64,000 nt of DNA from Promethearchaeota archaeon (GCA_048938895.1 JBHLLU010000008.1:1-64000); one strand, 5' to 3'. Counted from the stretch's first letter, positions 1 through 57,680 are shown. Program-made: numbers and translations. The notes: a model not told the origin generated them from the sequence alone.

Positions 1-783
1 ATGGCAGCAAGCTCATATGTTAGTATGGTTAATGCTCATTTTGAGGAATTTGGTAATCCTACTGAGGAACAAATGGCACTGGTTTCTGTTAAGAATCATG
101 GAAATGCAATAAATAATCCCAAAGCTCAATCCCCCATGAAAATCACGGTGGAAGATGTTATGAACTCAAGAATTATCTGCTACCCCTTCAAATTATTGGA
201 TTGTTGCCTTTATTCAGAGGCATCAGCTGCATTAATTTTAGCAAGCGAAACCAAAGTAAAAGAACTGAAAGTTGAGAATCCAATTTGGATAAGTGGAGTA
301 GGTGCTGCAAATACTGACTGTTTCATAGGAAATCGAGAAGATATGGGACGGTTATATTCTAACATTTATGCTGCAAGAGTTGCCTATAAAATGGCAGGAT
401 TGGAATATGATAAGATTAAAAGTCAAATTGATTTAGCAGAATTACATGATGCATTTTCTGGACAGGAAGTAATATCCTATGAAGAATTAGGTTTTGTTCC
501 TTTTGGTGAAGGTGGTAATTGGATTGAAGTTGGAGGCCCATCAATGGATGGTGAATTACCATGTTGCCCTTCAGGAGGACTAATAGGATGTGGTCACGCG
601 GTTGGAGCCACTGGAATAATGTCTACAGGAGAAGCAGCGTTACAATTAAGAGAGAATGCAGGAAAACATCAGATAAAAACAATTGAGAATGGAAGGGCCA
701 TTTCTCATTCGATAGGAGGTCCTGGTGCTGCGTATGCAGCAGTAATTGTAATGGAAAATGAAGAGGGGATTAGTAAAAAATGA
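1..783 (+). CDS. Thiolase-family (SCP-x/Ltp2-like) protein, C-terminal part, truncated by window edge
   Basis: KNHxNAxxNP, ELHDAF and GHAVGATG motifs; immediately followed by a DUF35 gene. Confidence 0.85.
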   Translation: MAASSYVSMVNAHFEEFGNPTEEQMALVSVKNHGNAINNPKAQSPMKITVEDVMNSRIICYPFKLLDCCLYSEASAALILASETKVKELKVENPIWISGVGAANTDCFIGNREDMGRLYSNIYAARVAYKMAGLEYDKIKSQIDLAELHDAFSGQEVISYEELGFVPFGEGGNWIEVGGPSMDGELPCCPSGGLIGCGHAVGATGIMSTGEAALQLRENAGKHQIKTIENGRAISHSIGGPGAAYAAVIVMENEEGISKK

Positions 784-1274
784 ATAATGAATTTCAAGCA
801 CATGAAATACGGGATATTATCAAGATAAACTATAAATATACTATGGGGGGTCAATCTAGATTTTTCTTAGAACTGATGAATAATAAAAAGATATTAGGAA
901 CAAAATGTAAAAATTGCGGAAAGATATGGCTCCCTCCTCGGATAAGTTGTTCAGATTGTTATATGCCTACTGATTGGGTAGAAGTGAAACACACGGGAGT
1001 TATAGAAGTAAGTACAATTGTATGGTTTACCACTTCAGCATTCATTAAAAATATACCATATGCCACCGGTTATATCAGATTAGATGGAGCTGACACAGCA
1101 TTATTACAAGGAATTTTTTCTGAAAATTTAGTTCCTTCAAAGATTAAAAAGGGAAAACTCGTGAGAGCAGTATTTCAAAAGGAACGACAGGGTAAAATGA
1201 CAGATTTTTTCTTTGTTCCTAAAGATGAGTATAACAATTGGATAATTAAGCCAGAATTCGAAGGAGGAGATTAG
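780..1274 (+). CDS. Zn-ribbon/OB-fold (DUF35/ChsH2-like) thiolase partner
   Basis: GTKCKNCGKIWLPPRISCSDC rubredoxin-like ribbon followed by OB fold; 4-nt overlap with the thiolase gene. Confidence 0.85.
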   Translation: MNNEFQAHEIRDIIKINYKYTMGGQSRFFLELMNNKKILGTKCKNCGKIWLPPRISCSDCYMPTDWVEVKHTGVIEVSTIVWFTTSAFIKNIPYATGYIRLDGADTALLQGIFSENLVPSKIKKGKLVRAVFQKERQGKMTDFFFVPKDEYNNWIIKPEFEGGD

Positions 1275-4882: not shown

Positions 4883-6505
4883 TCACCACTTAGTTTCTCT
4901 TTTCAATAATTTAAAAATATACGAATCAACAAGTGCTTCCCATGATGCTACAATGATATTCTCATGTGTTCCAATTGTACCCCATGATTTTCCGTTATCA
5001 TTCGTTTCAACTAATACTCTCACTTTTGAGGCAGTTCCTGCTTTATTAATTATTCTGACTTTAAAATCAGAAAGATTTATTTCTTTTAAACTTGGATAAA
5101 AATGAACTAATGCCTTTTTAAGAGCATTATCTAGCGCATTTACAGGACCATTTCCCTCAGCAGCCGTATGATATTCTTGACCTTTAACTTTTACTTTAAT
5201 CGTTGCTTCAGATATTAAATTTTTTTTACGCATATCAGTAAGTACTCGAAATCCTTCTAATTCAAAAAATTTCTTTCTATAATAATCCGGATCTTGAATG
5301 TTCATATCCATACTTCTCATAATAATTTCTAAAGAAGCTTCTGCACCTTCATAAACATATCCTTCATTCTCTTTTTGTTTGATCACTTCTAAAATCTCAG
5401 CAATTTTTGGATTCACTTCCGTTAAATGCATGCCAAATCTTTTGGACATGTGTAATATTGAACTTTTACCCGCTAATTCAGAAATTCTTATATTTCGAGA
5501 GTTTCCTACCAATTCGGGATTTATTTGTTCATAAGTTTTTGAATTTTTACGCATAGCTGAGATATGGACACCTCCTTTATGCGAAAATGCATTTCTTCCT
5601 ACAAAAGGTTGATCACTATTTCTAGGCAAATTGGTCATTTCGTAAATAAAGTGCGAAACTTCAGAGATATTTTCTAAATCTTCAAAAGATATGCAATTAA
5701 TTCCCATTTTTAATTTCAGAATTGGTAAAATTGTTGTTAAATCTGTATTACCACATCTTTCACCAAAACTATTTATCGTTCCTTGAATCATTCTAGCACC
5801 ATGGTGAAAAGCCTCTAAAGCAATAGCATTTGCCACACCAGAATCGTTATGGGCATGAATTCCTAAATGAACATCCTTTCCTAGAAAATCTTTTACCTTA
5901 TCAAATATTGGGCCTAATTCGTGTGGTAAGAGGCCGCCATTAGTATCACATAGAACAATCCATGACGCACCTGCATTATATGCGCACAAAATTGTTTGTA
6001 AAGCATATTGTTTATTGTTTTTAAATCCATCGAAAAAGTGCTCAGCATCATATACAACATCAATTCCATTTTTCTTTAAAAAGATAATTGTATCTCTAAT
6101 CATGTTAAGATTTTCTTTTAAACTAGTCTCTAAGGCGACCTTAACATGCAAATCCCAGCTCTTACCAAAAATTGCAGCATGTTTTGTGCCAACCGCTAAT
6201 AATGCTCTTAAGTTTCTGTCATCTTCAGTCTTAATATCCTTACGTCTAGTGCTCCCAAAAGCATAAAGCTTAGTCCCATTTGAATTTATATCCATTGTGT
6301 TAATTTTATTATAAAACATAATATCTTTTGGATTGGAACCAGGCCACCCAACTTCAATCATAGGAATGTGAAGATCGTTAATTAAGCGTTTGAGAATATG
6401 AATTTTATCCTCGACTGATAAACTAATTCCTGTTTTTTGACTTCCCTCCCGAAGGGTTGTATCATATATATACACTTTATTATCTGTGGTCAATGCCTTT
6501 TTCAC
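4883..6505 (-). CDS. cimA: Citramalate synthase (LeuA/CimA family with C-terminal regulatory domain)
   Basis: DTTLREG, FGKSWDLHV, DAEHFFDG, GIHAHND, GERCGN, HKGGVH motifs typical of the bacterial-type CimA clade. Confidence 0.88.
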   Translation of the reverse strand: MKKALTTDNKVYIYDTTLREGSQKTGISLSVEDKIHILKRLINDLHIPMIEVGWPGSNPKDIMFYNKINTMDINSNGTKLYAFGSTRRKDIKTEDDRNLRALLAVGTKHAAIFGKSWDLHVKVALETSLKENLNMIRDTIIFLKKNGIDVVYDAEHFFDGFKNNKQYALQTILCAYNAGASWIVLCDTNGGLLPHELGPIFDKVKDFLGKDVHLGIHAHNDSGVANAIALEAFHHGARMIQGTINSFGERCGNTDLTTILPILKLKMGINCISFEDLENISEVSHFIYEMTNLPRNSDQPFVGRNAFSHKGGVHISAMRKNSKTYEQINPELVGNSRNIRISELAGKSSILHMSKRFGMHLTEVNPKIAEILEVIKQKENEGYVYEGAEASLEIIMRSMDMNIQDPDYYRKKFFELEGFRVLTDMRKKNLISEATIKVKVKGQEYHTAAEGNGPVNALDNALKKALVHFYPSLKEINLSDFKVRIINKAGTASKVRVLVETNDNGKSWGTIGTHENIIVASWEALVDSYIFKLLKRETKW

Positions 6506-6559
6506 TGATGAATTTTTACCTTTTATTATTTATTTATAAACATTAAGAAATTCAAACCC

Positions 6560-6581
6560 AAAAAAGTCAAGATAAGATGAC
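6560..6581 (-). terminator. Candidate attenuator terminator (GUCA-8 nt-UGAC stem followed by U6) in the cimA leader
   Basis: Minus strand reads gtcatcttatcttgactttttt, between the leader ORF stop and the cimA start; stem is short and weak. Confidence 0.35.
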
Positions 6582-6595
6582 AAGAAAGAGTTTAA

Positions 6596-6613
6596 AATTT
6601 CATTAATGAAATT
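6596..6613. promoter_or_regulatory. Perfect 18-bp palindrome AATTTCATTAATGAAATT overlapping the leader-peptide stop codon
   Basis: Read directly; could be an RNA hairpin or a DNA operator. Confidence 0.45.
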
Positions 6614-6677
6614 AAATAATTCCGATAATAATTAATAAAATAGTAATACCTACAATCGGAATTAATACTAATCTCAT
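6612..6677 (-). CDS. Putative Ile/Leu/Val-rich leader peptide of cimA, MRLVLIPIVGITILLIIIGII (21 aa)
   Basis: Hand translation, ATG to TAA; 9 Ile, 4 Leu, 2 Val; ends 106 nt upstream of cimA on the same strand; 10-bp inverted repeat inside. Confidence 0.7.
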   Translation of the reverse strand: MRLVLIPIVGITILLIIIGII

Positions 6678-6700
6678 AATTTAAATAAAAGAAAAAGATC

Positions 6701-6716
6701 ATTTAAAATCTTTATT
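6701..6716 (-). promoter_or_regulatory. Candidate BRE/TATA promoter of the cimA leader (leaderless transcript)
   Basis: Minus strand caataaaga-TTTTAAAT ends about 24 nt before the leader ATG, typical archaeal spacing. Confidence 0.45.
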
Positions 6717-6753
6717 GTTGGTAGTATATAATTGAAGCAAAATTCTAAAAGTT

Positions 6754-6903
6754 GGAGATAATAACGCAATCATAAAGATTTGTAATGGCAAAGAAGATTT
6801 TACCAATGAAATCAGTCGAGATGAGATTATGGTTGAAAAGAGCAAAGTTATAAATGTCATAAGATTAACAAGAGCAATCACCATAGTTTTAAAAAATGAA
6901 TAG
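6754..6903 (+). pseudogene. 3' fragment of an SCP2-domain gene (third copy)
   Basis: Translates GDNNAIIKICNGKEDFTNEISRDEIMVEKSKVINVIRLTRAITIVLKNE*, homologous to the C-termini of 1277..1648 and 15208..15537; in-frame TGA upstream and no start codon. Confidence 0.85.
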
Positions 6904-6904
6904 C

Positions 6905-7195
6905 TTATCTAGGGTAATCATTTTTAGATCCCATTAGAGTGGTTGTTTCTTCGATCCATTGAGATAAATCGTTATCAACTCTACAAAAGGTAACAATTTT
7001 GTCTAAATCTTTTAGTTTACTAAATGAACATTCCACGATCACATCCCATCCTCCATAAATGGGAGTAGCATACGTTATTTTCCAATCATTTTCTGATTCT
7101 ATTGAGTGTAAATCCTTTAGTTTCTCAACAACCTTCCATTCTGATCCGATTACTTTTAATCGAATCAAGATATAGCCTCTATAATACATTTTCAT
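6905..7195 (-). CDS. Stand-alone Lrp/AsnC ligand-binding (RAM) domain protein
   Basis: GYILIRL...IYGGWDVIVE...IEETTTL pattern of the AsnC C-terminal domain, no HTH; GGAGG SD before ATG 7195. Confidence 0.65.
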   Translation of the reverse strand: MKMYYRGYILIRLKVIGSEWKVVEKLKDLHSIESENDWKITYATPIYGGWDVIVECSFSKLKDLDKIVTFCRVDNDLSQWIEETTTLMGSKNDYPR

Positions 7196-7226
7196 ATCCT
7201 CCATCTTTTATTTATTTGCTTTTTTA

Positions 7227-8519
7227 TTACCTATTTTCATATTTGATTATCTCTAAATGTGTTTTTTTTGTATCTTTTTCTAATGATTTAATATAATTTT
7301 TAACTTGAAATCCAATCTCGCTTTGTAAACCCCATATTGGGATAAACCCATAACTAAATTTTTGATTAAATGTACTGCTAGTTTCATATGTAGCTAAATT
7401 TAAATCATATAATCCATAAGGAGATTCTCTCGAAACAATGCTAACATTGCTTTTAAATAGTTTCACTTTCACATTTCCGGTTACTTTTAGATTTATAACA
7501 TTAATAAATGCTTCGAGTGCATCTCTTAACGGGTCAACCCATAAGCCTTCATAAGTTAATTCTGTCCACCTTTGATCTACTATTGCTTTAAATGAATTTT
7601 CATGCTTTGTACATACATATTTTTCAAGATCTTTATGTGCTTTAATCAAAATTAAAGCTGCAGGAACTTCATATACTTCTCTTGATTTTAATCCAATTGC
7701 TCGATCTTCCATGTGATTAACTCTTCCAATTCCATATTTACATCCAAGATTATGTAATTTTCTAATTAAATCTACACTATTTAACTTTTTGCCATTTAAA
7801 CCAATTGGTACTCCTTTTTCAAAATTTATTTGGATATACTCAACAGTATCAGGAGTATTTTCTGGTGTTGTTGTCCAAGCATAACAGTCTTCTGGGGTTT
7901 CAATTTCTGGATGTTCTAAGATATCACATTCGGCACTTCTTCCAAAAAGATTTTCATCGACACTATATTTTTGATTTTGCTTCTTAATTGGAATTCCGTG
8001 GTGTTGAGCATATTTAATTTCCTCATCTCTACCCATATTCCATTCTATTAAAGGTTGTAGTATTTCAATACTAGGAGCATGAGCTCTAATTGTAACATTA
8101 AACCGAATTTGATCATTACCCTTACCTGTACAACCATGAGCTATTACATCAATCTTTTCTTTTTGTGCTACTTTTATTGCTTCAATGGCTATTAAAGGTC
8201 TCCCTACTGCCGTACTTAGTGGATAAATTCCTTGATATAAACCATTTGCTTTAATAGTCGGAAATATATAATCATTTACAAACACTTCTTTTAAATCTAT
8301 ATTGTAATGTTTAATTACACCTAAATCGTATGCTTTTTCTTCAATTTCCTCAAATCTGGAAAGATCTGCAAATTGTTGGCCAAGATCGGCTGTAAATGTA
8401 TAAATTTCTGCTTTATATTTCTCTTGTAACCATGTTATCATACAGGAAGTATCCAAACCTCCAGAATACATTAATAATATTTTTTCATATTTTTCCTTTT
8501 TAGGGCCTAATTGATTCAT
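7227..8519 (-). CDS. argG: Argininosuccinate synthase
   Basis: YSGGLDTS, HGCTGKGNDQ, YSVDENL, KSREVYE motifs. Confidence 0.97.
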   Translation of the reverse strand: MNQLGPKKEKYEKILLMYSGGLDTSCMITWLQEKYKAEIYTFTADLGQQFADLSRFEEIEEKAYDLGVIKHYNIDLKEVFVNDYIFPTIKANGLYQGIYPLSTAVGRPLIAIEAIKVAQKEKIDVIAHGCTGKGNDQIRFNVTIRAHAPSIEILQPLIEWNMGRDEEIKYAQHHGIPIKKQNQKYSVDENLFGRSAECDILEHPEIETPEDCYAWTTTPENTPDTVEYIQINFEKGVPIGLNGKKLNSVDLIRKLHNLGCKYGIGRVNHMEDRAIGLKSREVYEVPAALILIKAHKDLEKYVCTKHENSFKAIVDQRWTELTYEGLWVDPLRDALEAFINVINLKVTGNVKVKLFKSNVSIVSRESPYGLYDLNLATYETSSTFNQKFSYGFIPIWGLQSEIGFQVKNYIKSLEKDTKKTHLEIIKYENR

Positions 8520-8554
8520 TAATCCCTCACATTTTCTAATTTTTAAATTCTGTT

Positions 8555-9598
8555 TTAAGCAGGGAATATAGGAATTGCTTTTAATCCTATATTCTCTTCT
8601 AAATTGAACATTAAATTCATATTTTGGACAGCTTGTCCTGCTGCACCCTTTATTAAATTATCAATTGCTCCAATAATTATTATCCTACCAACTCTTTCAT
8701 CTATACAAAACCCTATATCACAATAATTTGAACCTTTAACCCATCTCGTTTCAGGAAATACTTTTTTTCCCATCAGTCGAATGAAAAATTCTTTATAATA
8801 ATATTTGTCATAAATTTCTTTGATTTTGTTGTAATCATATGGTTTTTTGAGATTTCCATAGCAGGTACATAAAATCCCTCGATTCATGGGTGTTAGATGA
8901 GGTGTGAAAGTTACAGATATTTTATTTCCATTGAATTCACTTAATTGCTGCTCGATTTCTGGTGTATGTCGATGGGACACTACATTATAGGCTTTAATAG
9001 ATTCATTACATTCAGAAAAATGTGTTCCGATATCAAGAGATCGACCCGCTCCAGATACTCCTGATTTTGCATCAATAATTATATGTTCTTCTTTTAGAAT
9101 ACCTTCTTTAATAAGTGGTAGTAAACATAATAAAATACATGTTGGATAGCAGCCAGGATTTGCAATCAAGTTTGAACTGCTTATTTGTTCTCTCTTCCAT
9201 TCAGATAAACCGTAAACAGCTTTATTCAAAAGAGCTATATTATTATGTTTAATTTTGTACCATTCTTCATACTCTTCTGCATTCTTTAATCGAAAATCAG
9301 CACTAAGATCAATAACCTTGACATTTTTTAAAATGGAATCTGATAACAACTTAGAAGTAACTCCATGAGGCAATGCTAAAAATATAATATCAAGTTGTTT
9401 TATTATAGAATCAAGATTATTCTCATTGCATTTCATTTCACATATTTTGCTGAAATTAGCAAAAATAGAATCATAATTATGGTTGGTATGACTCCTTGAC
9501 GTTATTACATTAATCTTTACCTCAGGATGATGATATAAAATTCTTATTAATTCAGCTCCTACATATCCCGTTGCGCCCATTATTCCTGCTTTAATCAT
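8555..9598 (-). CDS. argC: N-acetyl-gamma-glutamyl-phosphate reductase
   Basis: GATGYVG, ANPGCYPT, SGVSGAGR, DNLIKGAAGQA motifs. Confidence 0.97.
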   Translation of the reverse strand: MIKAGIMGATGYVGAELIRILYHHPEVKINVITSRSHTNHNYDSIFANFSKICEMKCNENNLDSIIKQLDIIFLALPHGVTSKLLSDSILKNVKVIDLSADFRLKNAEEYEEWYKIKHNNIALLNKAVYGLSEWKREQISSSNLIANPGCYPTCILLCLLPLIKEGILKEEHIIIDAKSGVSGAGRSLDIGTHFSECNESIKAYNVVSHRHTPEIEQQLSEFNGNKISVTFTPHLTPMNRGILCTCYGNLKKPYDYNKIKEIYDKYYYKEFFIRLMGKKVFPETRWVKGSNYCDIGFCIDERVGRIIIIGAIDNLIKGAAGQAVQNMNLMFNLEENIGLKAIPIFPA

Positions 9599-9602
9599 CT
9601 CT

Positions 9603-10796
9603 TTAAACCTCTACGAATTTTTCTAATACAGTATTCATAATATTTATCCCTTTATCAATGTCTTTTTTACTGATTATAAGCGGCGGAACAAACCTTATAA
9701 CATTTTCCCCAGCCCCTAAAATGAGTAGACCTTCTTCCATACACTCTTTAATGATATCCTTCACTGAACAATTTAACTCAATACCAAGCATCAAACCATA
9801 TCCGCGTACATCTTTTATTAGTTCATACTTCTTCTGTATTTCAATTAATTTCTCTTTAAAATATTTGCCTTGCTTTTGTACATTTTCAAGAACACCCTTA
9901 AATAATAGTTTTTTAATTACTACTTTACCAGCTGTACAAGCTAAATGATTACCACCAAACGTTGATGCATGATCACCTGGTTGAAAAGCTTCCGCTTTAC
10001 TCTGAATGGCCATCATTGCTCCTATAGGAAAGCCTCCTCCTAATCCCTTTGCTAATGTTACAACATCAGGCTCGATATCAAATAACTGATATGCGAAGAG
10101 CTCGCCTGTTCTTCCTATTCCGCATTGAACCTCATCGAAAATTAGGATAATATCTTTTTCATCACAAAGAGAACGCACTTTCTGTAAGTAGTTCTTCTCA
10201 GCGGGATGAATTCCTCCCTCTCCTTGTATAGGTTCAATGATAACCGCACATGTGTTTTCACTCACCGCCTTTTCAAGCATGTCAAAGTTATTAAAATCCA
10301 CATAGGAAAATCCAGGGAGTAATGGATTAAATCCTTTTTGATATTTAGTTTGACCCGTTGCGGTAATAGTTGCCATGGTCCTACCATGAAACGATTTATT
10401 CATCGTAATGATTTCAAAACAATTTTCTCCATGAACTTTCCTTCCATATTTCTTACTCAACTTTATTGCCGCTTCTACAGCTTCTGCTCCACTATTACAG
10501 TAAAAAATCTTGTCAAAACAACTATTTTGAATTAATAATTCACTTAATTCAATTGAAGGTATCATCCAATACAAATTTGAACAATGCTGTAATTTTGCTA
10601 ACTGTGAAGTAATTTCTTTTACATAATCAGAATCATTATAACCAAGTGCATTTACAGCTATACCAGCAACGAAATCTAAATATTCTTTACCTTCACTATC
10701 CCAGAGATATACACCATTACCTCTTTCCAATACGATAGGGAACTGATTATATGTATTCATGATAACTTTATTCCCTCTTTCAATCCAATCATTCAT
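9603..10796 (-). CDS. argD: Acetylornithine aminotransferase
   Basis: Class III PLP motifs SFHGRT, DEVQCG, LAKGLGGG, STFGGN; arg operon context. Confidence 0.93.
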   Translation of the reverse strand: MNDWIERGNKVIMNTYNQFPIVLERGNGVYLWDSEGKEYLDFVAGIAVNALGYNDSDYVKEITSQLAKLQHCSNLYWMIPSIELSELLIQNSCFDKIFYCNSGAEAVEAAIKLSKKYGRKVHGENCFEIITMNKSFHGRTMATITATGQTKYQKGFNPLLPGFSYVDFNNFDMLEKAVSENTCAVIIEPIQGEGGIHPAEKNYLQKVRSLCDEKDIILIFDEVQCGIGRTGELFAYQLFDIEPDVVTLAKGLGGGFPIGAMMAIQSKAEAFQPGDHASTFGGNHLACTAGKVVIKKLLFKGVLENVQKQGKYFKEKLIEIQKKYELIKDVRGYGLMLGIELNCSVKDIIKECMEEGLLILGAGENVIRFVPPLIISKKDIDKGINIMNTVLEKFVEV

Positions 10797-10822
10797 AACC
10801 CCATTTAGCCTCTTTTTTCATT

Positions 10823-11689
10823 TTAATCTGATTTTTTAAACATAGTACCTATCCCATGAGGGGTGAATATTTCAAGCAAAAGGCTATGGTCAATTCTCCC
10901 ATCTATAATATGAACAGCCGTTACACCACTTTGTATCGCTTCTATACTACACCTTACTTTTGGAATCATTCCGTCGGTAATAATCCCTTCCTTTATAAAA
11001 GTTAAAGCTTGATCAACCTTCATCTCCTTTATTAGAGATGTATCATCATTAAGATCACTAAGCACGCCTAGAACATCAGTTAAATATATTAACTTTTCAG
11101 CTCTAAGTGCTTTTGATATGGCAAGTGCTACATCATCAGCATTTATATTGAATGTATTTCCTAAATTATCCTTTCCTATAGGTGCAATCACAGGGATTAC
11201 GGAATTATCTAGAATCCCTTGTAAAAATTTTGTATTAACATTTACAACCTCTCCAACAAAGCCTAAATCTTTTCCATCTACAATTTTCTTCTTAACTTGT
11301 AATAAATTGCTATCTTTTCCACAAATGCCAATTGCATTAGCACCTTGGGTTTGAATATCGTTAACTATACTTTTATTAATCTTTCCAGCTAATACCATTT
11401 CAACTACATCCATTGTTTCCTTATCCGTAACTCTTAATCCGTTGAAAAATTTTGGCTCGATTTCTAATTTTTTCAACATTTCATTTATGATGGGCCCTCC
11501 ACCATGAACTATTATGAGATTTATATCTACTAAATTCATAGACACAACATCTTCAACAAAACTTTTCTTGAGTTTAGGATCTTTCATGGCACTTCCTCCA
11601 AATTTTATGATAACAGTTTTACCATAAAATTTTTTGATGTATTGGAGTGCTTCAACCAAAATTTTTGCTTTTCCTAATTTATCAATCAT
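10823..11689 (-). CDS. argB: Acetylglutamate kinase (start moved to ATG 11689, MIDKLGK)
   Basis: IKFGG, VHGGGP, NINAD, GMIPK motifs; the longer ORF-track start would overlap argJ. Confidence 0.95.
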   Translation of the reverse strand: MIDKLGKAKILVEALQYIKKFYGKTVIIKFGGSAMKDPKLKKSFVEDVVSMNLVDINLIIVHGGGPIINEMLKKLEIEPKFFNGLRVTDKETMDVVEMVLAGKINKSIVNDIQTQGANAIGICGKDSNLLQVKKKIVDGKDLGFVGEVVNVNTKFLQGILDNSVIPVIAPIGKDNLGNTFNINADDVALAISKALRAEKLIYLTDVLGVLSDLNDDTSLIKEMKVDQALTFIKEGIITDGMIPKVRCSIEAIQSGVTAVHIIDGRIDHSLLLEIFTPHGIGTMFKKSD

Positions 11690-11702
11690 AATAGTCAACC
11701 TT

Positions 11703-12944
11703 TTATGTTCTGTAATTCCCATTAATTCGTACATAATCATAGGATAAATCACAACCCCAAGCAGTTGCTTCACCATTGCCATCTTTCAATATGACTTCAA
11801 CAATAATTTCATTTTTTTTCAAAATTTGTTTTGCTAATTTTTCATCGAATATTATAGGTATGCCATCATGCATGAGTTTAACCGAATTAGATCCGTTTTT
11901 AAATGTTATAGAAACTTTTGACGGATTAAATTTTGCTCCAGAATATCCCATGGCTGCAAGAATTCGACCCCAATTAGCATCCTCCCCAAAAAATGCCGTT
12001 TTCACTAAATTTGAAGTGATTACTGCTTTACTTAAGACTTTTGCTTCTTGATTAGAAGTTGCACCTTTAAGATTTACCGTAATGAATTTCTTAGCTCCTT
12101 CTCCATCCCTAACGATTTCTTGAGCTAAAAAAGTATTAACGTAATTTAATGCCTGTTTAAAAATATGATATTCCTTATTTTCCTCTTTAATTACTGAATT
12201 TCCGGCTAAACCATTAGCTAATAGAAATACTGAATCATTTGTGCTTGTATCTCCATCTACAGAGATCATGTGATACGAATCATCAACACTTTCCTTTAAA
12301 GCCTTATCCAATAATTCTCTTGAAATTTTAATATCAGTAGTGATAAAGGATAACATAGTTGCCATATTTGGATGTATCATTCCTGAACCTTTAGCCATCC
12401 CTCCAATTCTTATTCTCTTCTTATTAACAGAAAATTCAACTGTAATTTCTTTAGGATATGTATCCGTGGTCATAATTGCCTTAGCTGCTAAATGAGCATC
12501 TCTTTCCGTTTTTCCTAATTTTTGATATGTAGCATTGATTCCATCAAGTATCACATCAATTGGAAGAGGTACACCAATAACTCCCGTAGACGCAACGAGA
12601 ACTTGATTTTTATTTAAGTTTAAACAAGAGGCTAATTCAGCAGCTATTAATTCAGTATGATTAATCCCAATTTCTCCAGTACAAGCATTTGCATTTCCAC
12701 TATTAATAACAACCGCTTGGATTAGGTTTTGATTTTGAATAAGGTTTTGATCCCATAAAACCGGTGCTGCTTTTACCACATTTGTAGTGAATACCCCAAC
12801 TGCTTTAGCTGAAACTTCACTATATATTATAGCTAAGTCGTTCTTACCTTCTCTAATCCCAATATGATTACCAGTAGCATGATATCCCCTTGGACTTGTA
12901 ATCCCTCCATTGGTTTGTAATATTCCTACGTTTTTTGCTTCCAT
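11703..12944 (-). CDS. argJ: Ornithine acetyltransferase / N-acetylglutamate synthase
   Basis: NSGNANACTG, KGSGMIHPNMATML, DGDTSTND, DGEGA motifs. Confidence 0.97.
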   Translation of the reverse strand: MEAKNVGILQTNGGITSPRGYHATGNHIGIREGKNDLAIIYSEVSAKAVGVFTTNVVKAAPVLWDQNLIQNQNLIQAVVINSGNANACTGEIGINHTELIAAELASCLNLNKNQVLVASTGVIGVPLPIDVILDGINATYQKLGKTERDAHLAAKAIMTTDTYPKEITVEFSVNKKRIRIGGMAKGSGMIHPNMATMLSFITTDIKISRELLDKALKESVDDSYHMISVDGDTSTNDSVFLLANGLAGNSVIKEENKEYHIFKQALNYVNTFLAQEIVRDGEGAKKFITVNLKGATSNQEAKVLSKAVITSNLVKTAFFGEDANWGRILAAMGYSGAKFNPSKVSITFKNGSNSVKLMHDGIPIIFDEKLAKQILKKNEIIVEVILKDGNGEATAWGCDLSYDYVRINGNYRT

Positions 12945-13011
12945 TTCTCATGACCTCTTAAAATTGTATAATTTAATTCCCCCTATTAAAAAAATAATAA
13001 AAATAAAAATT

Positions 13012-13042
13012 TTGAAGAAGTAAAGAAAAAAAAATACTTCAA
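13012..13042 (-). terminator. Candidate attenuator element: GAAGTA/TACTTC stem enclosing a U9 tract, followed by further U-tracts
   Basis: Inverted repeat 13017-13022/13035-13040 around A9 (U9 in the transcript), about 30 nt downstream of the Arg-leader stop. Confidence 0.4.
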
Positions 13043-13063
13043 CTTATTATCTTTATTAAGAAA

Positions 13064-13159
13064 TTATCTACGGCGACGTGCCGATCTTTGATTGCGCGGT
13101 GCTTTTTGAAATTGTGTCCTTACAATTTCATAATTCCTATGAGGTCCAAGTGAAATCAA
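13064..13159 (-). CDS. Putative Arg-rich leader peptide of the arg operon, MISLGPHRNYEIVRTQFQKAPRNQRSARRRR (31 aa)
   Basis: Hand translation; TTG start with GGTG SD-like motif upstream; 8 Arg codons, ending CGT CGC CGT AGA TAA; ends 119 nt upstream of argJ. Confidence 0.78.
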   Translation of the reverse strand: MISLGPHRNYEIVRTQFQKAPRNQRSARRRR

Positions 13160-13210
13160 AGTTCAAAACACCAACACAATATTAATATTAACATAAATAT
13201 AGCATTGTTT

Positions 13211-13224
13211 ATTTATAAAAGTTA
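13211..13224 (-). promoter_or_regulatory. Candidate TATA box (TTTTATAAAT) of the arg leader/operon
   Basis: About 50 nt upstream of the leader start, leaving a short 5' UTR that contains the SD. Confidence 0.45.
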
Positions 13225-13405
13225 GGTAATAAATTAAACGATTCTTTAATAATTTCGTATTTTATTAAAAAATATAGTCAAAAAGAAAATATTTTATTAA
13301 ACGTTTGTTCCTTATTTTATTGCATTCGTTAAATATTTTTTAATACATAATTTGTATTAATAAAAACTTATCGATTTTTCATGAACATTTTTCAAAAAAC
13401 CTAAA

Positions 13406-14890
13406 TCATGAGATTAATTTTTTGATAATTTCTCCTCTAAGATTATCAGCCTTTTTAATCATTTCTATTCTTTCTGAAAATATTTTATGTAATGAATCTT
13501 TCTTATTTGTTAAAATACCAATGTCTTTTTTAATTTCTTTCTCAGAGGGAGAACCTTGGCTAATTCTTTTTTCTAAACAGAGATCTAAATTCTTTAATGT
13601 TTGAATTATATTTTCCGATATTGTTAACTTTTTATTCAGGACATCAAGAATATATTTCTCAATTTTTTCTTTCTTTAACAATTCTTCTGGTTTTTCTGAA
13701 TTTTTTACTAAAAGTGCAACTATTTCATGTGATTGCCTAAAAGGGATATTATACTCTTTTACTAATAACTCAGCTAAATCTAACGCAAGAATGTAACTTT
13801 CATCAATACTGCTTTTCATTATCTTTTTATTTACTGTAATGGTTGAGAATATCCCTTTGAACATATTAATCATTGAATCGACTTGACTAAATGAATGTTG
13901 TAATAATATCTTTAAATCTTGGAAATCCCTAAAATATCCTGTTGGAATTGCTTTAATAGTAATTGCAGCATTAAATAAGTTCGAAATAACTTTTGAACAT
14001 CTGCTTCTAATTAATTCCACTGTATCAGGATTTTTCTTTTGTGGCATAACGCTTGAAACAGAACAATACTCATCAGCAATTTCAATAAAATTAAATTCTT
14101 TACTAGACCAAACTATCAAGTCTTCAGCTATTCTCGAAAATTGAATAGCTAATAATGAAAGTACCATCAATGTTTCATAAATATAGTCTCGCGAACTAAT
14201 TGCGTCAATAGAATTATACACTATTCCATCAAATCCCAATAATTCTGAAGTTCTAACCCTATTAATATTAATACTTGTACCTCCAATAGCACAGGCACCA
14301 AGTGGATTCCTATTAATTCTATTATAAATCTCTTCAATTCTTTTTAGAGATCTTAAAATTTGTGCAATATAATTATTGATATAATGAGAAAAAACACCTA
14401 ATTGACCCCTTTGCAAGTGAGTATATAACGGGAGATACGATATAATATTATTTTTAGACAAAATAAATAAGATCTCAACAAGGGAGAATAAATCTTCGGA
14501 AATGTGATTTAGTTCTTTTCTGATTTTTAATCGTAAATCAACTGCTATTTGATCATTTCTTGATCTACCTGTATGCATTTTACCCCCAATATCAATCCCG
14601 ATTTCGTCGATAACAACCTTTTCGATAAAAGGATGAATATCCTCAAAATTTTTTTCAAGAGTTATATGACCATTTTTGATTTGTTTTTTTATTTTTTCAA
14701 GAGCAGGTAAGATGATTTTGATTTCAGTTTCACTAAGAATTTTTTGCTCATATAACATTATATCATGAACTTGAGTCCCAATAATATCCTCTTCAAAAAG
14801 CCAAACATCTTCTTTTAATGATGAAACAAACTCAAGTGCGTCATATTCAAGAGGAGTTCCTAACCTAGTTCTATAAAAATTTTTTCCCAT
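13406..14890 (-). CDS. argH: Argininosuccinate lyase
   Basis: HTGRSRNDQ, YTHLQRGQ, SSVMPQKKNPD motifs. Confidence 0.96.
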   Translation of the reverse strand: MGKNFYRTRLGTPLEYDALEFVSSLKEDVWLFEEDIIGTQVHDIMLYEQKILSETEIKIILPALEKIKKQIKNGHITLEKNFEDIHPFIEKVVIDEIGIDIGGKMHTGRSRNDQIAVDLRLKIRKELNHISEDLFSLVEILFILSKNNIISYLPLYTHLQRGQLGVFSHYINNYIAQILRSLKRIEEIYNRINRNPLGACAIGGTSININRVRTSELLGFDGIVYNSIDAISSRDYIYETLMVLSLLAIQFSRIAEDLIVWSSKEFNFIEIADEYCSVSSVMPQKKNPDTVELIRSRCSKVISNLFNAAITIKAIPTGYFRDFQDLKILLQHSFSQVDSMINMFKGIFSTITVNKKIMKSSIDESYILALDLAELLVKEYNIPFRQSHEIVALLVKNSEKPEELLKKEKIEKYILDVLNKKLTISENIIQTLKNLDLCLEKRISQGSPSEKEIKKDIGILTNKKDSLHKIFSERIEMIKKADNLRGEIIKKLIS

Positions 14891-20465: not shown

Positions 20466-21515
20466 ATGAAACTTGTCGATTTAAGGTCTGATACTGTAAC
20501 CAAACCTTCTCCGGAAATGTGGGAGATGATAAAATCAATGGATAATTCCAAGCTTGGGGATGATGTTATCGGTGAAGATCCTACTGTGAATGAATTAGAA
20601 GAAAAGGCAGCCAAAGTAGTAGGAAAAGAAGCAGCTTTGCTGGTAACTTCAGGGACTCAAGGAAATTTAGTTTCTCTCCTTTCTCAAACGAATCCTGGAA
20701 ATGAAATCTTATTAGAACAACAATGTCATATCGTGGGTCATGAAGTTGGAAGTGCAGCTCGTATTGGGGGACTAATGATACGGACTTACCCTTCGAGTAA
20801 AGGAGTTCCCTCAGTTGATCACCTTCAAGAATTAATTCGATACAAAGAAGACATACATGAACCAACAACGACTCTAATAAGTGTTGAAAATACCCATAAT
20901 TTCCATGGAGGTGTGATAATAAATCCAGAAATCTTAAAAAATTTAAGGGAATTTGCCCAAAAAAATGAATTGAGATTTCATTTAGATGGTGCTAGAATTT
21001 TCAATGCTGCTGTGGGTCTTAATATACCAGTAACAGATTTTACTAACCATGTTGATAGTGTAATGTTTTGTTTATCTAAAGGATTATCCTGTCCTATTGG
21101 ATCCATGGTGGCGGGATCAAAAGATTTTATATCTAAAGCTCGAAAGTTCCGTAAGATGTTAGGTGGAGGTATGCGACAAGCGGGGATAATTGCATCATTT
21201 GGATTAGTGGCGCTTGAGCCCAAATGGATTAAAAGATTAGAAGAAGATCATAGAAATGCAAAAATTCTTGCAGATGGGTTGAAGTTTCTTAAAGCACCTA
21301 TTAGGATAAATGAACCAGATACTAATATTGTTATTTTAGAATTTTTAAATAAAATTAGAATCTTTAAGATCATTACTGAGCTAGGGAAAGAGGGCATATT
21401 AGCGTTTAACATTAGCAAAGAAAAGATCCGTTTTGTAACTCACTATGGAATTCAGGAGGATGATATTGAATATAGTATAAAAAAAATTGGTGCGATACTA
21501 CAAAAATTTAATTAA
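20466..21515 (+). CDS. ltaE: Low-specificity L-threonine aldolase
   Basis: DLRSDTVTKP, ENTHN, HLDGARIFNA, CLSKGL motifs. Confidence 0.93.
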   Translation: MKLVDLRSDTVTKPSPEMWEMIKSMDNSKLGDDVIGEDPTVNELEEKAAKVVGKEAALLVTSGTQGNLVSLLSQTNPGNEILLEQQCHIVGHEVGSAARIGGLMIRTYPSSKGVPSVDHLQELIRYKEDIHEPTTTLISVENTHNFHGGVIINPEILKNLREFAQKNELRFHLDGARIFNAAVGLNIPVTDFTNHVDSVMFCLSKGLSCPIGSMVAGSKDFISKARKFRKMLGGGMRQAGIIASFGLVALEPKWIKRLEEDHRNAKILADGLKFLKAPIRINEPDTNIVILEFLNKIRIFKIITELGKEGILAFNISKEKIRFVTHYGIQEDDIEYSIKKIGAILQKFN

Positions 21516-21536
21516 AATCTTCATCTCTAATTCACT

Positions 21537-22109
21537 ATGTGTTTCTATATTACAGCAACTTTACCTCAAGGAACTCAAGTAGATAATTTTAGAAATATTC
21601 TTGAACAATATAAGATGGCTTTTACTCCAATCACCAATTCGAAAGTTCAATCTCAATTAAGACCAGATGAATTATATTTTAGAGCAACCAAGAATTACTG
21701 TGATTGTGATACGGTATTAGGGTCTTTGAATACTTTACAAGAGTTTCATAAAATATCCAACTCAAAAAAAGTTAAAGCACTAAGGAAGAAAAATTGGTCA
21801 GATGCAGAGATAAACAAGTGGATTGATACCAAATTGAGCAATCGTCAAAAAAAATCTGGAAAAAAGTTAAGCCCCATAGAGAGAAAAAATGAAACAGAAA
21901 GATGGATGAAATTTCTTCATGATTTATTGGATAATAAATTTGTTTCACGGATCGGGCTAATAAAACATTGGTATGAACAGGGATTAGAATATGATCAAAT
22001 TGAAATATTAAAAACTCAGAAAATTCTTATCAATGATCTTAAACCGGATTTATTACTTAATATGAGTGAAGATATCTTATATGAATTTATTCCAGATTAT
22101 AATTACTAA
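21537..22109 (+). CDS. Hypothetical protein (Cys motifs MC...CDCD)
   Basis: 190-aa ORF in line with ltaE; no family recognised. Confidence 0.6.
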   Translation: MCFYITATLPQGTQVDNFRNILEQYKMAFTPITNSKVQSQLRPDELYFRATKNYCDCDTVLGSLNTLQEFHKISNSKKVKALRKKNWSDAEINKWIDTKLSNRQKKSGKKLSPIERKNETERWMKFLHDLLDNKFVSRIGLIKHWYEQGLEYDQIEILKTQKILINDLKPDLLLNMSEDILYEFIPDYNY

Positions 22110-56261: not shown

Positions 56262-56375
56262 TTATTCTTTTTCTAATATTTTGTTTTTGTATAATAATAA
56301 AATTATTATTTTTTAATCAGTTTCATAATATAATAGAAATGATGATACCAACAAAACATTTTAGACGTTAATAAT

Positions 56376-57680
56376 ATGGTAAGTATTTCCTTTCTTGGTG
56401 CATGTAGAGAAGTCGGGAGAAGCGCAGTTTTAATTGAATCTAAAAATGGTACAAAATGCATGTTAGATTATGGGATTAGATTTCGTGGAGACGAAAGACT
56501 TCCTATGGTAACAAACATAGAGAATCTAAAAGCGATTGCATTGACCCATAGTCATATAGATCATTCTGGGGGTCTTCCTTTTTTATATAAAACTCATAAA
56601 GTACCATTTATCACAAATTCAATCTCTCTTGCTTTAGCAGATATCTTAATAAAAGATATGATCAGAATTTCAAGTTATCCCTTCCCATTTGGGTATAGAG
56701 AATTAGATTTACTAAAACAGAATTCATTTTTCCTTACCAATGGAATTCGGCATAAAATTGATGATGATTTTTTTATAACTTTTATCGACGCAGGTCATAT
56801 TCCTGGAAGTGTGTCAATCTTACTCGAAGTAGATAATAAAACTATTCTATATTCTGGAGATATAAACACTCAAATCACCAATTTAATCCATTCAGCTAAC
56901 TATTCTGATATACCTGAAATAGATACATTAATAATTGAATCAACTTATGCTCTTCGAAATCATCCCCCAAGAGAGCAATTAGAAAGAGAATTTATAGAAA
57001 AAATAACAAACATTACAGAAAATGGTGGTACGGTTCTAATTCCCGCTTTTGGAGTAGCTCGTTCTCAGGAAGCACTATTAATTTTAGAAAAATACCAATA
57101 TAATGGGAAGATTTTTATTGATGGATTAGCAAGAAAAATATCAATGCTATGTTTAGATTATCCTGGTTTTATTAAAAACATAAAATTATTTAAGAGTGCC
57201 CTGAAAAAAGCTCAATTTGTCTCAAGACCTAAGACTAGGGCAAAAGTTAAAGATACTAGTGGAGTAATAATTTCACCATCTGGGATGCTTAAAGGTGGAG
57301 CTGCAATAGACTATATTCAATCAATACTCAAAGATCCTTTATCAGCAATATATTTGGTAGGGTACCAAGTTGAGGGAACTCCCGGAAGAAGTTTACTAGA
57401 TAATGGTATCTTCGAATTTAAGGAATCTCGTAAAAATAAACCTAATTTTACTTTAAGAATTGAAGCACAATGTGATTATCATTATTTTGATTTTTCCAGT
57501 CATTCTGATAATAATCATATTCACAATTATATCGAAAATCTAAAATTTAAAAAAGATTCCCATAGCGACATATTTTGCGTTCATGGAGATAACAAATCCA
57601 CTACGAGTTTAGCTAGTGAATTAGTAACTAAAAATTATAATTCTGTAGCTCCCGAAACTGGAGAAATATACCAAATCTAA
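56376..57680 (+). CDS. Metallo-beta-lactamase/beta-CASP ribonuclease without KH domains (aCPSF2-like)
   Basis: LGACREVGRS, THSHIDHSG, AGHIPGS, ESTY, FSSH, VHG motifs. Confidence 0.88.
   Translation: MVSISFLGACREVGRSAVLIESKNGTKCMLDYGIRFRGDERLPMVTNIENLKAIALTHSHIDHSGGLPFLYKTHKVPFITNSISLALADILIKDMIRISSYPFPFGYRELDLLKQNSFFLTNGIRHKIDDDFFITFIDAGHIPGSVSILLEVDNKTILYSGDINTQITNLIHSANYSDIPEIDTLIIESTYALRNHPPREQLEREFIEKITNITENGGTVLIPAFGVARSQEALLILEKYQYNGKIFIDGLARKISMLCLDYPGFIKNIKLFKSALKKAQFVSRPKTRAKVKDTSGVIISPSGMLKGGAAIDYIQSILKDPLSAIYLVGYQVEGTPGRSLLDNGIFEFKESRKNKPNFTLRIEAQCDYHYFDFSSHSDNNHIHNYIENLKFKKDSHSDIFCVHGDNKSTTSLASELVTKNYNSVAPETGEIYQI

Follow-up and report, generated by a model that had tools for sequence, protein, structure and literature searches.

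What decides, in an archaeon, whether the genes for making an amino acid are expressed? The question is raised by a stretch of 64,000 nucleotides from a Promethearchaeota archaeon (GCA_048938895.1 JBHLLU010000008.1:1-64000; "the window" in what follows), in which an arginine operon, argJ-argB-argD-argC-argG, and a cimA/leuA-like synthase gene (cimA, for short) are each preceded by a short open reading frame (ORF) whose last codons are crowded with arginine and isoleucine, respectively. It appears probable that both ORFs, which are known here from DNA sequence alone, are genuine cognate-codon leader peptides working by ribosome-mediated attenuation adapted to archaeal U-tract termination. That they are cis-acting, translation-sensing leaders is very likely; that control is exerted at transcription termination has about even chances. 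The genome (G000) is a metagenome-assembled genome (MAG) of 4.65 Mb with a G+C content of 31% and an estimated contamination of 7.5%; all leader and gene coordinates in the arg-cimA region refer to the minus strand (Table 1).

The earlier note on this DNA had placed the two leaders and measured their lengths and spacings, and these values hold: the arginine ORF, of 31 codons, stops (13066-13064) 119 nucleotides (nt) ahead of the argJ ATG at 12944, and the isoleucine ORF, of 21 codons, stops 106 nt ahead of the cimA GTG at 6505. The arginine leader ranks first among the 127 small ORFs (sORFs) of this genome for which arginine is the best-enriched residue. The codons of its terminal arginine run are mostly rare ones: in long ORFs, CGT accounts for 11.7% and CGC for 3.5% of arginine codons, and AGA for 51.8%. 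The sequence of the run, GGCACGTCGCCGT, is identical at three of five congeneric loci, and the other two (L007 and L008) differ at two to three bases. A homologous ORF is present at 8 of 14 argJ loci (five of five in the genus and three of three in a second genus) with its frame and length kept: the start codon is TTG or ATG in one and the same alignment column, and the stop retains its position. At four of the genus loci the ORF has 31 codons, at one it has 35; four of the five end in (S/A)RRR(R), and L008 ends in PSRRGF. The ORFs of the second genus end in PARHRL or PARLRL. No arginine leader was found at the distant argJ loci L004, L005, L006, L168 and L169; L167 has an arginine-rich sORF that is not homologous to it. 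Upstream, the AT-rich conservation of the block at 13202-13192 suggests a TATA box for the leader's promoter. (A technical note: the positional profiles of TATA-like and Shine-Dalgarno-like motifs are too flat for promoter placement.)

By windowed isoleucine enrichment in the genome-wide sORF scan the isoleucine leader ranks just 17th of 832. Among the 2643 sORFs of 15-30 amino acids, it is the sole one in which isoleucine, leucine and valine together make up at least 75% of the residues, and the only one with five isoleucines in its last six codons. It is present at all five archaeal cimA loci that have upstream sequence, in differing genomic contexts (the homologous peptides are MRLRLIPLVGISILLIIIGII, MKLKLKPIIGIIAIFIIIIGIII at two loci, and MNGKIIPREFGIGIILIIIGIII, each followed by a stop codon); the other 76 cimA loci that were scanned, most of them bacterial (46-54% identity), have no comparable sORF. 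The AT-rich conservation of the block at 6713-6701 makes it a putative TATA element with its transcription factor B recognition element (BRE); since it lies only about 25 nt before the leader's ATG, a leaderless or near-leaderless sORF would be implied.

Are these two leaders alone in their genome? A blind scan of 6684 sORFs (8-50 codons) in 2836 upstream regions, ranked by single-residue enrichment, returned as the two most tryptophan-enriched of them all (LF)MKLATTPEWCWQWPWRWR, which lies 148 nt upstream of a TrpB2-like gene (trpB2; NF009057), and MSTVKIFSWRWQCWWRV, 168 nt upstream of trpD, the opening gene of a trpDCFBAEG operon. A phenylalanine-rich sORF, MDLSYYEINKNFNQVQFFCFFFILPRD, lies 200 nt upstream of pheS-pheT-pheA (pheA encoding chorismate mutase/prephenate dehydratase); it is weaker by window rank (24), and isoleucine- and phenylalanine-rich sORFs are common in a genome of 31% G+C. 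There are thus at least five cognate leaders in this genome: Arg/argJBDCG, Ile/cimA, Trp/trpDCFBAEG, Trp/trpB2 and Phe/pheS-pheT-pheA. (Other candidates were tried and discarded: the histidine-rich sORFs MEHHEHHHH and LHIFLALHHHRFH precede a restriction-modification methylase and a CoA transferase gene, and are thus non-cognate; other threonine-, methionine- and arginine-rich sORFs that were tested are not cognate either, the threonine- and methionine-rich ones preceding unrelated genes.)

The enrichment of cognate leaders at other operons and in relatives, on which the earlier note had staked its proposal, is found for the two trp units and for pheST-pheA. The trpB2 leader (..WQWPWRW[RQ]-stop) is present at 29 of 30 loci and at 0 of 30 on the antisense strand. 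At trpD, an sORF with at least three tryptophans in eight codons occurs at 15 of 28 loci (0 of 28 on the antisense strand; 0.12 expected from dinucleotide shuffles), and the positives extend to order-, class- and phylum-level relatives. The phenylalanine leader (..[QS]xSFFFxFFILPR[ED]-stop) lies about 204 nt before pheS at 25 of 30 loci. The tryptophan and phenylalanine leaders alike vary freely over their N-terminal halves and are constant in the cognate cluster, in the tail and in their distance from the gene. Cognate codons set directly against the stop, as the earlier note had pictured them, describe the arginine and isoleucine leaders of this genome and do not extend to all of the others: in one arginine leader of a relative, four codons intervene between run and stop, the phenylalanine leaders have a constant five-codon tail after the cluster, and zero to six codons (mostly one or two) follow the last tryptophan of the tryptophan leaders.

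Might the peptides themselves be the sensors? In the case of the fungal arginine attenuator peptide and of TnaC, it is the free amino acid that is sensed, by way of a conserved peptide for which a run of cognate codons is unnecessary. They resemble the present leaders in that an upstream ORF (of an arginine pathway in the one case and of tryptophan catabolism in the other) regulates near its stop codon. The defining feature here is instead the cognate-codon cluster, and the core of the arginine peptide overlaps RNA helices. A sensor based on nascent-peptide arrest was rejected on these grounds: N-terminal parts vary freely, and what is conserved are the cognate clusters and the helix-forming segments.

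What signal might such leaders control? The GC-rich hairpin with its T-run that terminates transcription in bacteria has no site on the relevant strand of either the arginine or the isoleucine region, which bears out what the earlier note had said about the lack of a strong GC terminator hairpin, and a scan for sigma-70 promoters yielded nothing meaningful on that strand. (The region's sole terminator-like site, a GC-rich palindrome with a T-rich tail at 13071-13083 on the plus strand, lies opposite the arginine codons and is probably incidental.) Ordinary genes of this genome end at tracts of five or more T, a median of 22 nt past the stop codon, and hairpins are not enriched at gene ends (mean z of -0.19 versus -0.13 for coding controls, 500 windows each). 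The pattern matches archaeal termination at U-tracts, which needs no hairpin; U-tracts are bound by the KH domains of aCPSF1, and the Lokiarchaeota ortholog behaves alike (excerpts of PMC8716108). Polarity in archaea is likely caused by the same factor, FttA (excerpts of PMC12548453). A full aCPSF1/FttA ortholog is encoded on contig C85 of this genome (TIGR03675, 890 bits against a cut-off of 580, which, among control genomes, only archaeal ones exceed). The leaders are followed by multiple tracts of at least four U, and the untranslated RNA past a leader's stop would be the expected substrate of the factor; the excerpted parts of the two papers deal with gene-end and intra-operon termination and with polarity, rather than with leader ORFs that respond to amino acids. 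(A beta-CASP/aCPSF-family paralog is encoded in the window itself, at 56352-57671 on the plus strand; its TIGR03675 score, 266.7 bits, is below the cut-off.)

The RNA of the arginine region was folded with RNAalifold (8 sequences; the control is the same alignment, slid). In all, 40 pairs are predicted, with 96.9% of cells paired versus 41-56% in the slid controls; just two of the pairs show compensatory change. The conserved block ahead of the start codon (13167-13179) pairs with 13107-13092, that is, with codons 19-24, to form helix P1 (one G-C to A-U compensatory change). Helix P2 lies within the ORF, and a small GC hairpin within the arginine codons. Past the stop comes a long, conserved AU-rich hairpin (helices 4 and 5; 96% of cells paired versus 41-56%), which ends just before a T7 run at 12994-12988; the earlier note, which had seen weak stems only, must be amended on this point. 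In the isoleucine region, a chain of mutually exclusive pairings can be read from the sequence: the start of the ORF with its end, that end with the segment that follows, and this segment in turn with one farther away. AATTTCA (6613-6607) can pair either with TGAAATT (6602-6596) or with the start of the ORF, and GAAATTTTAAACTC (6601-6588) can pair with GGGTTTGAATTTC (6559-6547), enclosing a C/T-rich stretch with T6 at 6565-6560. A 13-bp hairpin, with the last codons and the stop as its 5' arm, closes the phenylalanine leader (90.5% of cells paired in 26 sequences versus 30-61% when slid; two compensatory pairs). In the tryptophan leaders, hairpins span the stop, and their sequence varies with pairing kept: GGCGU/ACGCC, GGUCU/AGACC, GCACGC/GCGUGC.

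When a ribosome is imposed on these structures by constraint folding, the outcome depends on where it sits: at the stop, it does away with the base of the post-stop hairpin (five of five arginine and three of three phenylalanine leaders); on the cognate codons, it leaves that base intact in the same leaders. A general rule, that the stalled ribosome masks the 5' arm of a terminator, was entertained and rejected: constraint folding of the arginine, phenylalanine and tryptophan leaders gave different geometries.

The proposed mechanism would run as follows. Each leader would be translated from its own promoter-proximal start. If the matching charged tRNA is scarce, the ribosome would stall at the cluster of cognate codons toward the end of the ORF; if it is plentiful, the ribosome would run on to the stop. 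Its position would dictate the choice between downstream RNA helices and, through that choice, either termination at the oligo-U tracts ahead of the first gene or read-through. For the arginine leader, the proposal can be made specific: an A-rich segment that starts 5 nt past the stop would pair with the first of the U-tracts. A ribosome at the stop would cover this segment, leaving the U-tracts single-stranded and accessible to aCPSF1/FttA, and expression would be off; a ribosome stalled on the arginine run would leave the segment free to sequester the U-tracts, and expression would be on. Because starvation must switch expression on, the hairpin should favor read-through, and its loss termination. 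The logic is essentially that of the E. coli attenuators, whose antiterminator strand is blocked once the ribosome has reached the stop; here a bare U-tract signal would take the place of the terminator hairpin. This particular A:U sequestration scheme is offered tentatively. The earlier note's own suggestions, a switch between ribosome dwell and release and the shielding of U-rich RNA from a nuclease, are likewise conjecture. So is its extension to a domain-specific, Asgard type of attenuation, phylum-wide for tryptophan, in which oligo-U would be hidden from aCPSF1/FttA (the homologue of the eukaryotic cleavage factor CPSF73) by an A-rich or hairpin segment, or left exposed, depending on where the leader ribosome stands: a conjecture that may well prove wrong.

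What weighs against attenuation by these leaders? 1) The set is incomplete. The earlier note had suggested a genome-wide system; the two trp units and pheST-pheA do widen it, but no cognate leader was found in this genome at hisG, ilvC, four leuA-like genes, hom, two OTC genes or argH. 2) Covariation is weak, with two compensatory pairs each for the phenylalanine hairpin and the arginine region, and the structures are derived from the same sequences that they are meant to explain. 3) The conserved middle of the arginine peptide overlaps helices P1 and P2. In the second genus, the arginine run has decayed to R-H-R or R-L-R (two to three arginines in the last ten codons) with the GC hairpin retained, which is also what a constraint on RNA structure would lead one to expect. 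4) The arginine, phenylalanine and tryptophan geometries differ, so that no single switch fits all; in some of the GC-richer tryptophan leaders, the tryptophan codons lie inside the 5' arm of the hairpin, and U5 follows. 5) Conserved BRE/TATA-like blocks lie between leader and gene (for example GAAAGATTTAAATAC, some 60 nt ahead of pheS); the T-rich block ahead of argJ might in fact be a TATA box; and the upstream regions of trpD and trpB2 share, between leader and gene, a block of about 50 nt, GTGC(A/T)TTA..TATTGA(A/T)TTCCAATAT..ACACAT. (A CATTGGA segment just past the stop of the tryptophan leader could pair with the shared block.) With BRE/TATA-like blocks downstream of the leaders, the genes may have promoters of their own rather than be co-transcribed with the leaders. 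6) The GGTG ahead of the arginine ORF is a soft argument for its translation, because a Shine-Dalgarno-like motif precedes just 279 of 1598 genes of this genome.

Several of these points can be turned into other explanations, of which control of translation fares best, though we consider it unlikely. The stalled ribosome would remodel the RNA so as to expose or hide the ribosome-binding region of the first gene, and transcription would not end prematurely. The failure to find a canonical terminator on the relevant strand suits this explanation, as do the exclusive pairings of the isoleucine leader, which extend from the start of the ORF as far as a segment close to the start of cimA; by the same reading of the sequence, GAATTT in G000 can also pair with AAATTC just before the cimA GTG. 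However, L053 does not keep the pairing with the start region of cimA, the scarcity of the Shine-Dalgarno motif leaves few genes that make use of it, and the strong multiple U-tracts that are conserved after the arginine leader are, in this genome, what marks the ends of genes.

Far less probable is a second explanation, under which the leaders are structured cis-regulatory RNAs (riboswitch-like or protein-binding), and the reading frames and their cognate codons mere by-products of GC-rich helices. Helices P1, P2 and P3 span most of the arginine ORF, the conserved peptide core overlaps helix strands, and, as already described, the arginine count falls in the second genus as the GC hairpin persists. 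But in five different units the leader's residue fits the pathway encoded downstream, TTG and ATG replace each other in one start column with the stop position kept, and tryptophan-rich sORFs recur across lineages amid unrelated flanking sequence. Described RNA families (T-box, riboswitches, Rfam leaders) were rejected for want of a covariance-model match: in window positions 6400-13500, nothing comes near Rfam gathering scores (the best reaches 18.6 bits), and the trp and phe loci L133, L012 and L013 have no match at E of 1 or less.

Slighter still is the chance that the sORFs encode independent small proteins that merely adjoin the genes and have no role in cis. The isoleucine leader, fully hydrophobic and of transmembrane length, could pass for a small membrane peptide; there are possible separate promoters downstream of the sORFs; and the modest ranks of the isoleucine and phenylalanine leaders reflect how common such sORFs are at this G+C content. 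Against this, the isoleucine sORF accompanies cimA into different genomic contexts, the phenylalanine and tryptophan leaders hold on to cognate cluster and gene distance as their N-terminal halves diverge, and a match of residue to pathway in five units is not expected of unrelated peptides. That the leaders are bacterial attenuators imported with horizontally acquired operons, or lie on a contaminating bacterial contig, is scarcely credible: the arg operon and cimA are indeed patchy (argJ in 5 of 54 genus and 14 of 400 phylum genomes, cimA in 3 of 54 genus genomes) and the MAG's contamination estimate is not negligible, but the closest named relatives of cimA are "Promethearchaeota archaeon" MAGs (89% and 68% identity), every bacterial match lying at the 46-54% already cited and the sORF being absent from the 76 loci (the evidence on which import was rejected), leaders also stand before an archaeal-type PheRS (PheS and PheT both match archaeal equivalogs) and before the widespread TrpB2, bacterial-type terminators were not found, and contamination is made unlikely by the cimA relatives, the PheRS, the aCPSF1 ortholog and, in a relative, an arg locus on a 1.05-Mb contig. 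The first three of these also support the earlier note on its Asgard-like archaeon: the organism is an Asgard archaeon.

Leader-peptide attenuation thus remains the preferred reading, and the comparison with its classical form is close in some respects and not in others. The leader-peptide transcription attenuators of enterobacteria comprise trpL, pheL, pheM (of pheST), ilvL/ivbL, hisL and leuL. Like them, these leaders are short ORFs that precede, on the same strand, an operon for biosynthesis or for an aminoacyl-tRNA synthetase; cognate codons cluster near the end of the ORF, predicted alternative pairings overlap that end, and a U-rich tract comes before the first gene. The phenylalanine leader before pheST parallels pheM, and rare codons in the arginine run parallel leuL. 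Unlike them, the present leaders have an archaeal host whose genes end at hairpin-free U-tracts, a GC-rich Rho-independent terminator was not found, a clear four-segment 1:2/2:3/3:4 arrangement is not demonstrable, and sequence homology is absent. An arginine leader before an arg operon is, to our knowledge, not part of the classical set. In the textbooks, leader-peptide attenuation is a mechanism of bacteria, one that requires transcription and translation to be coupled; we know of no description of it in Archaea, and no report of it in archaea, Asgard archaea included, was found in a full-text literature whose coverage leaves out most subscription journals. We regard the leaders as attenuator-like in operation, a new variant from a new domain of life rather than members of the bacterial families, because position, cognate enrichment and conserved start and stop are all found and the defining intrinsic terminator is not. 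The leaderless polycysteine sORF attenuators of mycobacteria (excerpts of bioRxiv 10.1101/834739) offer another parallel: there too, an sORF rich in a single residue is the first cistron of that amino acid's operon, and the isoleucine leader, judging by the TATA-like block ahead of it, is probably as leaderless, or nearly so. Domain of life and amino acids differ from those in the excerpted text.

If the proposal is true, the closest prokaryotic relatives of eukaryotes put the functional coupling of transcription and translation to regulatory use. The supply of an amino acid would be read by an element resembling a eukaryotic upstream ORF (uORF) and acted upon by a machinery for 3'-end cleavage and termination that is eukaryote-like; conceptually, bacterial attenuators and eukaryotic uORFs would thereby be linked. 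It would also constitute a natural, sequence-defined test bed for regulated U-tract/aCPSF1 termination in archaea. The spread of the trpD leader to phylum level would make the device, for tryptophan, old enough for phylum-wide sharing. The leaders are easy markers for annotation, and they predict Asgard lineages that tune tryptophan salvage (trpB2), the charging of phenylalanine tRNA, and arginine and isoleucine synthesis to the state of tRNA charging.

Table 1. Coordinates of the leaders, their presumed targets and the elements discussed (window positions unless a locus is named)
Feature	Position	Strand	Basis or remark
argJ-argB-argD-argC-argG operon, presumed target of the Arg leader	7227..12944	-	Pfam
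cimA/leuA-like synthase (citramalate or isopropylmalate synthase family), presumed target of the Ile leader	4883..6505	-	Pfam HMGL-like, HCS_D2, LeuA_dimer
Arg leader ORF, TTG start, 31 codons, 8 Arg, ends ARRRR-stop; LISLGPHRNYEIVRTQFQKAPRNQRSARRRR	13064..13159	-	frame and start column conserved in relatives
Arg run CGT CGC CGT AGA, mostly rare CGY codons	13067..13078	-	codon counts
AT-rich block gCTATATTTATg, putative TATA box for the promoter of the Arg leader, some 15-25 nt ahead of the conserved 5' block	13192..13202	-	CCTAT(A/T)T conserved in 5 congeneric loci
TTGTGTTGGTGTT, 5' strand of helix P1 (the conserved 5' block), with GGTG (Shine-Dalgarno-like core) 9 nt before the start codon	13167..13179	-	(nearly) invariant in 8 loci
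Helix P2 within Arg ORF, GAAATTG ... CAATTTC	13108..13129	-	8 pairs with 100% of cells paired (8 sequences); one compensatory change
Long AU-rich hairpin, A-rich 5' arm pairing with first U-tracts; begins after 5 unpaired nt past Arg stop	12995..13058	-	RNAalifold helices 4+5
T5-A-T5-A-TT-A-T7 block, candidate archaeal U-tract terminator, alternatively TATA-like element	12988..13009	-	conserved in 8 loci; putative role
Ile leader ORF, ATG start, 21 codons, 9 Ile, ends IIIGII-stop; MRLVLIPIVGITILLIIIGII	6612..6677	-	homologs at archaeal cimA loci
AAAGATTTTAAAT, putative BRE/TATA of Ile-leader promoter	6701..6713	-	AAAG(A/G)TTTTAAA conserved in L010, L011, L053
Ile post-stop switch region	6547..6613	-	RNAalifold, 5 sequences: 47 pairs, 6 with compensatory change
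Shared trp block	L013 ~9200-9260 (-); L012 ~775-830 (+)		contains small hairpin
Shared promoter-adjacent motif	window 13220-13235 (read on +); L133 ~520-540; L012 ~815-830		opposite to gene strand at arg

The genes for amino acid biosynthesis are very patchily distributed across the genus and the phylum. Besides argJ and cimA, whose counts have been given, trpD is present in 6 of 54 genus genomes including G000 (5 of 53 without it); TrpB2 is present in 81 of 101 relatives, and most of them may salvage indole instead of making tryptophan de novo. In the window, argH (13406-14890, minus strand; identified by Pfam) lies upstream of argJ, and the arginine leader stands between the two. At the other end of the operon, an ORF of 99 amino acids without a Pfam or NCBIfam match (6905-7204, minus strand) directly follows argG, and a hydrophobic ORF of 61 amino acids (6699-6884, minus strand), which lies between it and the isoleucine leader, overlaps that leader's putative promoter. 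A motif resembling TTAAACGATT or TTTAACGATAC is found beside the putative promoters of the arg, pheS and trpB2 units, and may be a site for a common regulator or a promoter element. Two peptide ORFs unrelated to attenuation also came to light: one of 45 amino acids, acidic and rich in aspartate, glutamate and tryptophan (MKPKSNKGKKSSDDDEDWDEDED..., in G000:C47 upstream of 5672-7984 on the minus strand), and one made up of lysine/alanine/proline repeats (MAKKAPKKKAAPKKK..., in G000:C78 upstream of 21402-22109 on the plus strand).

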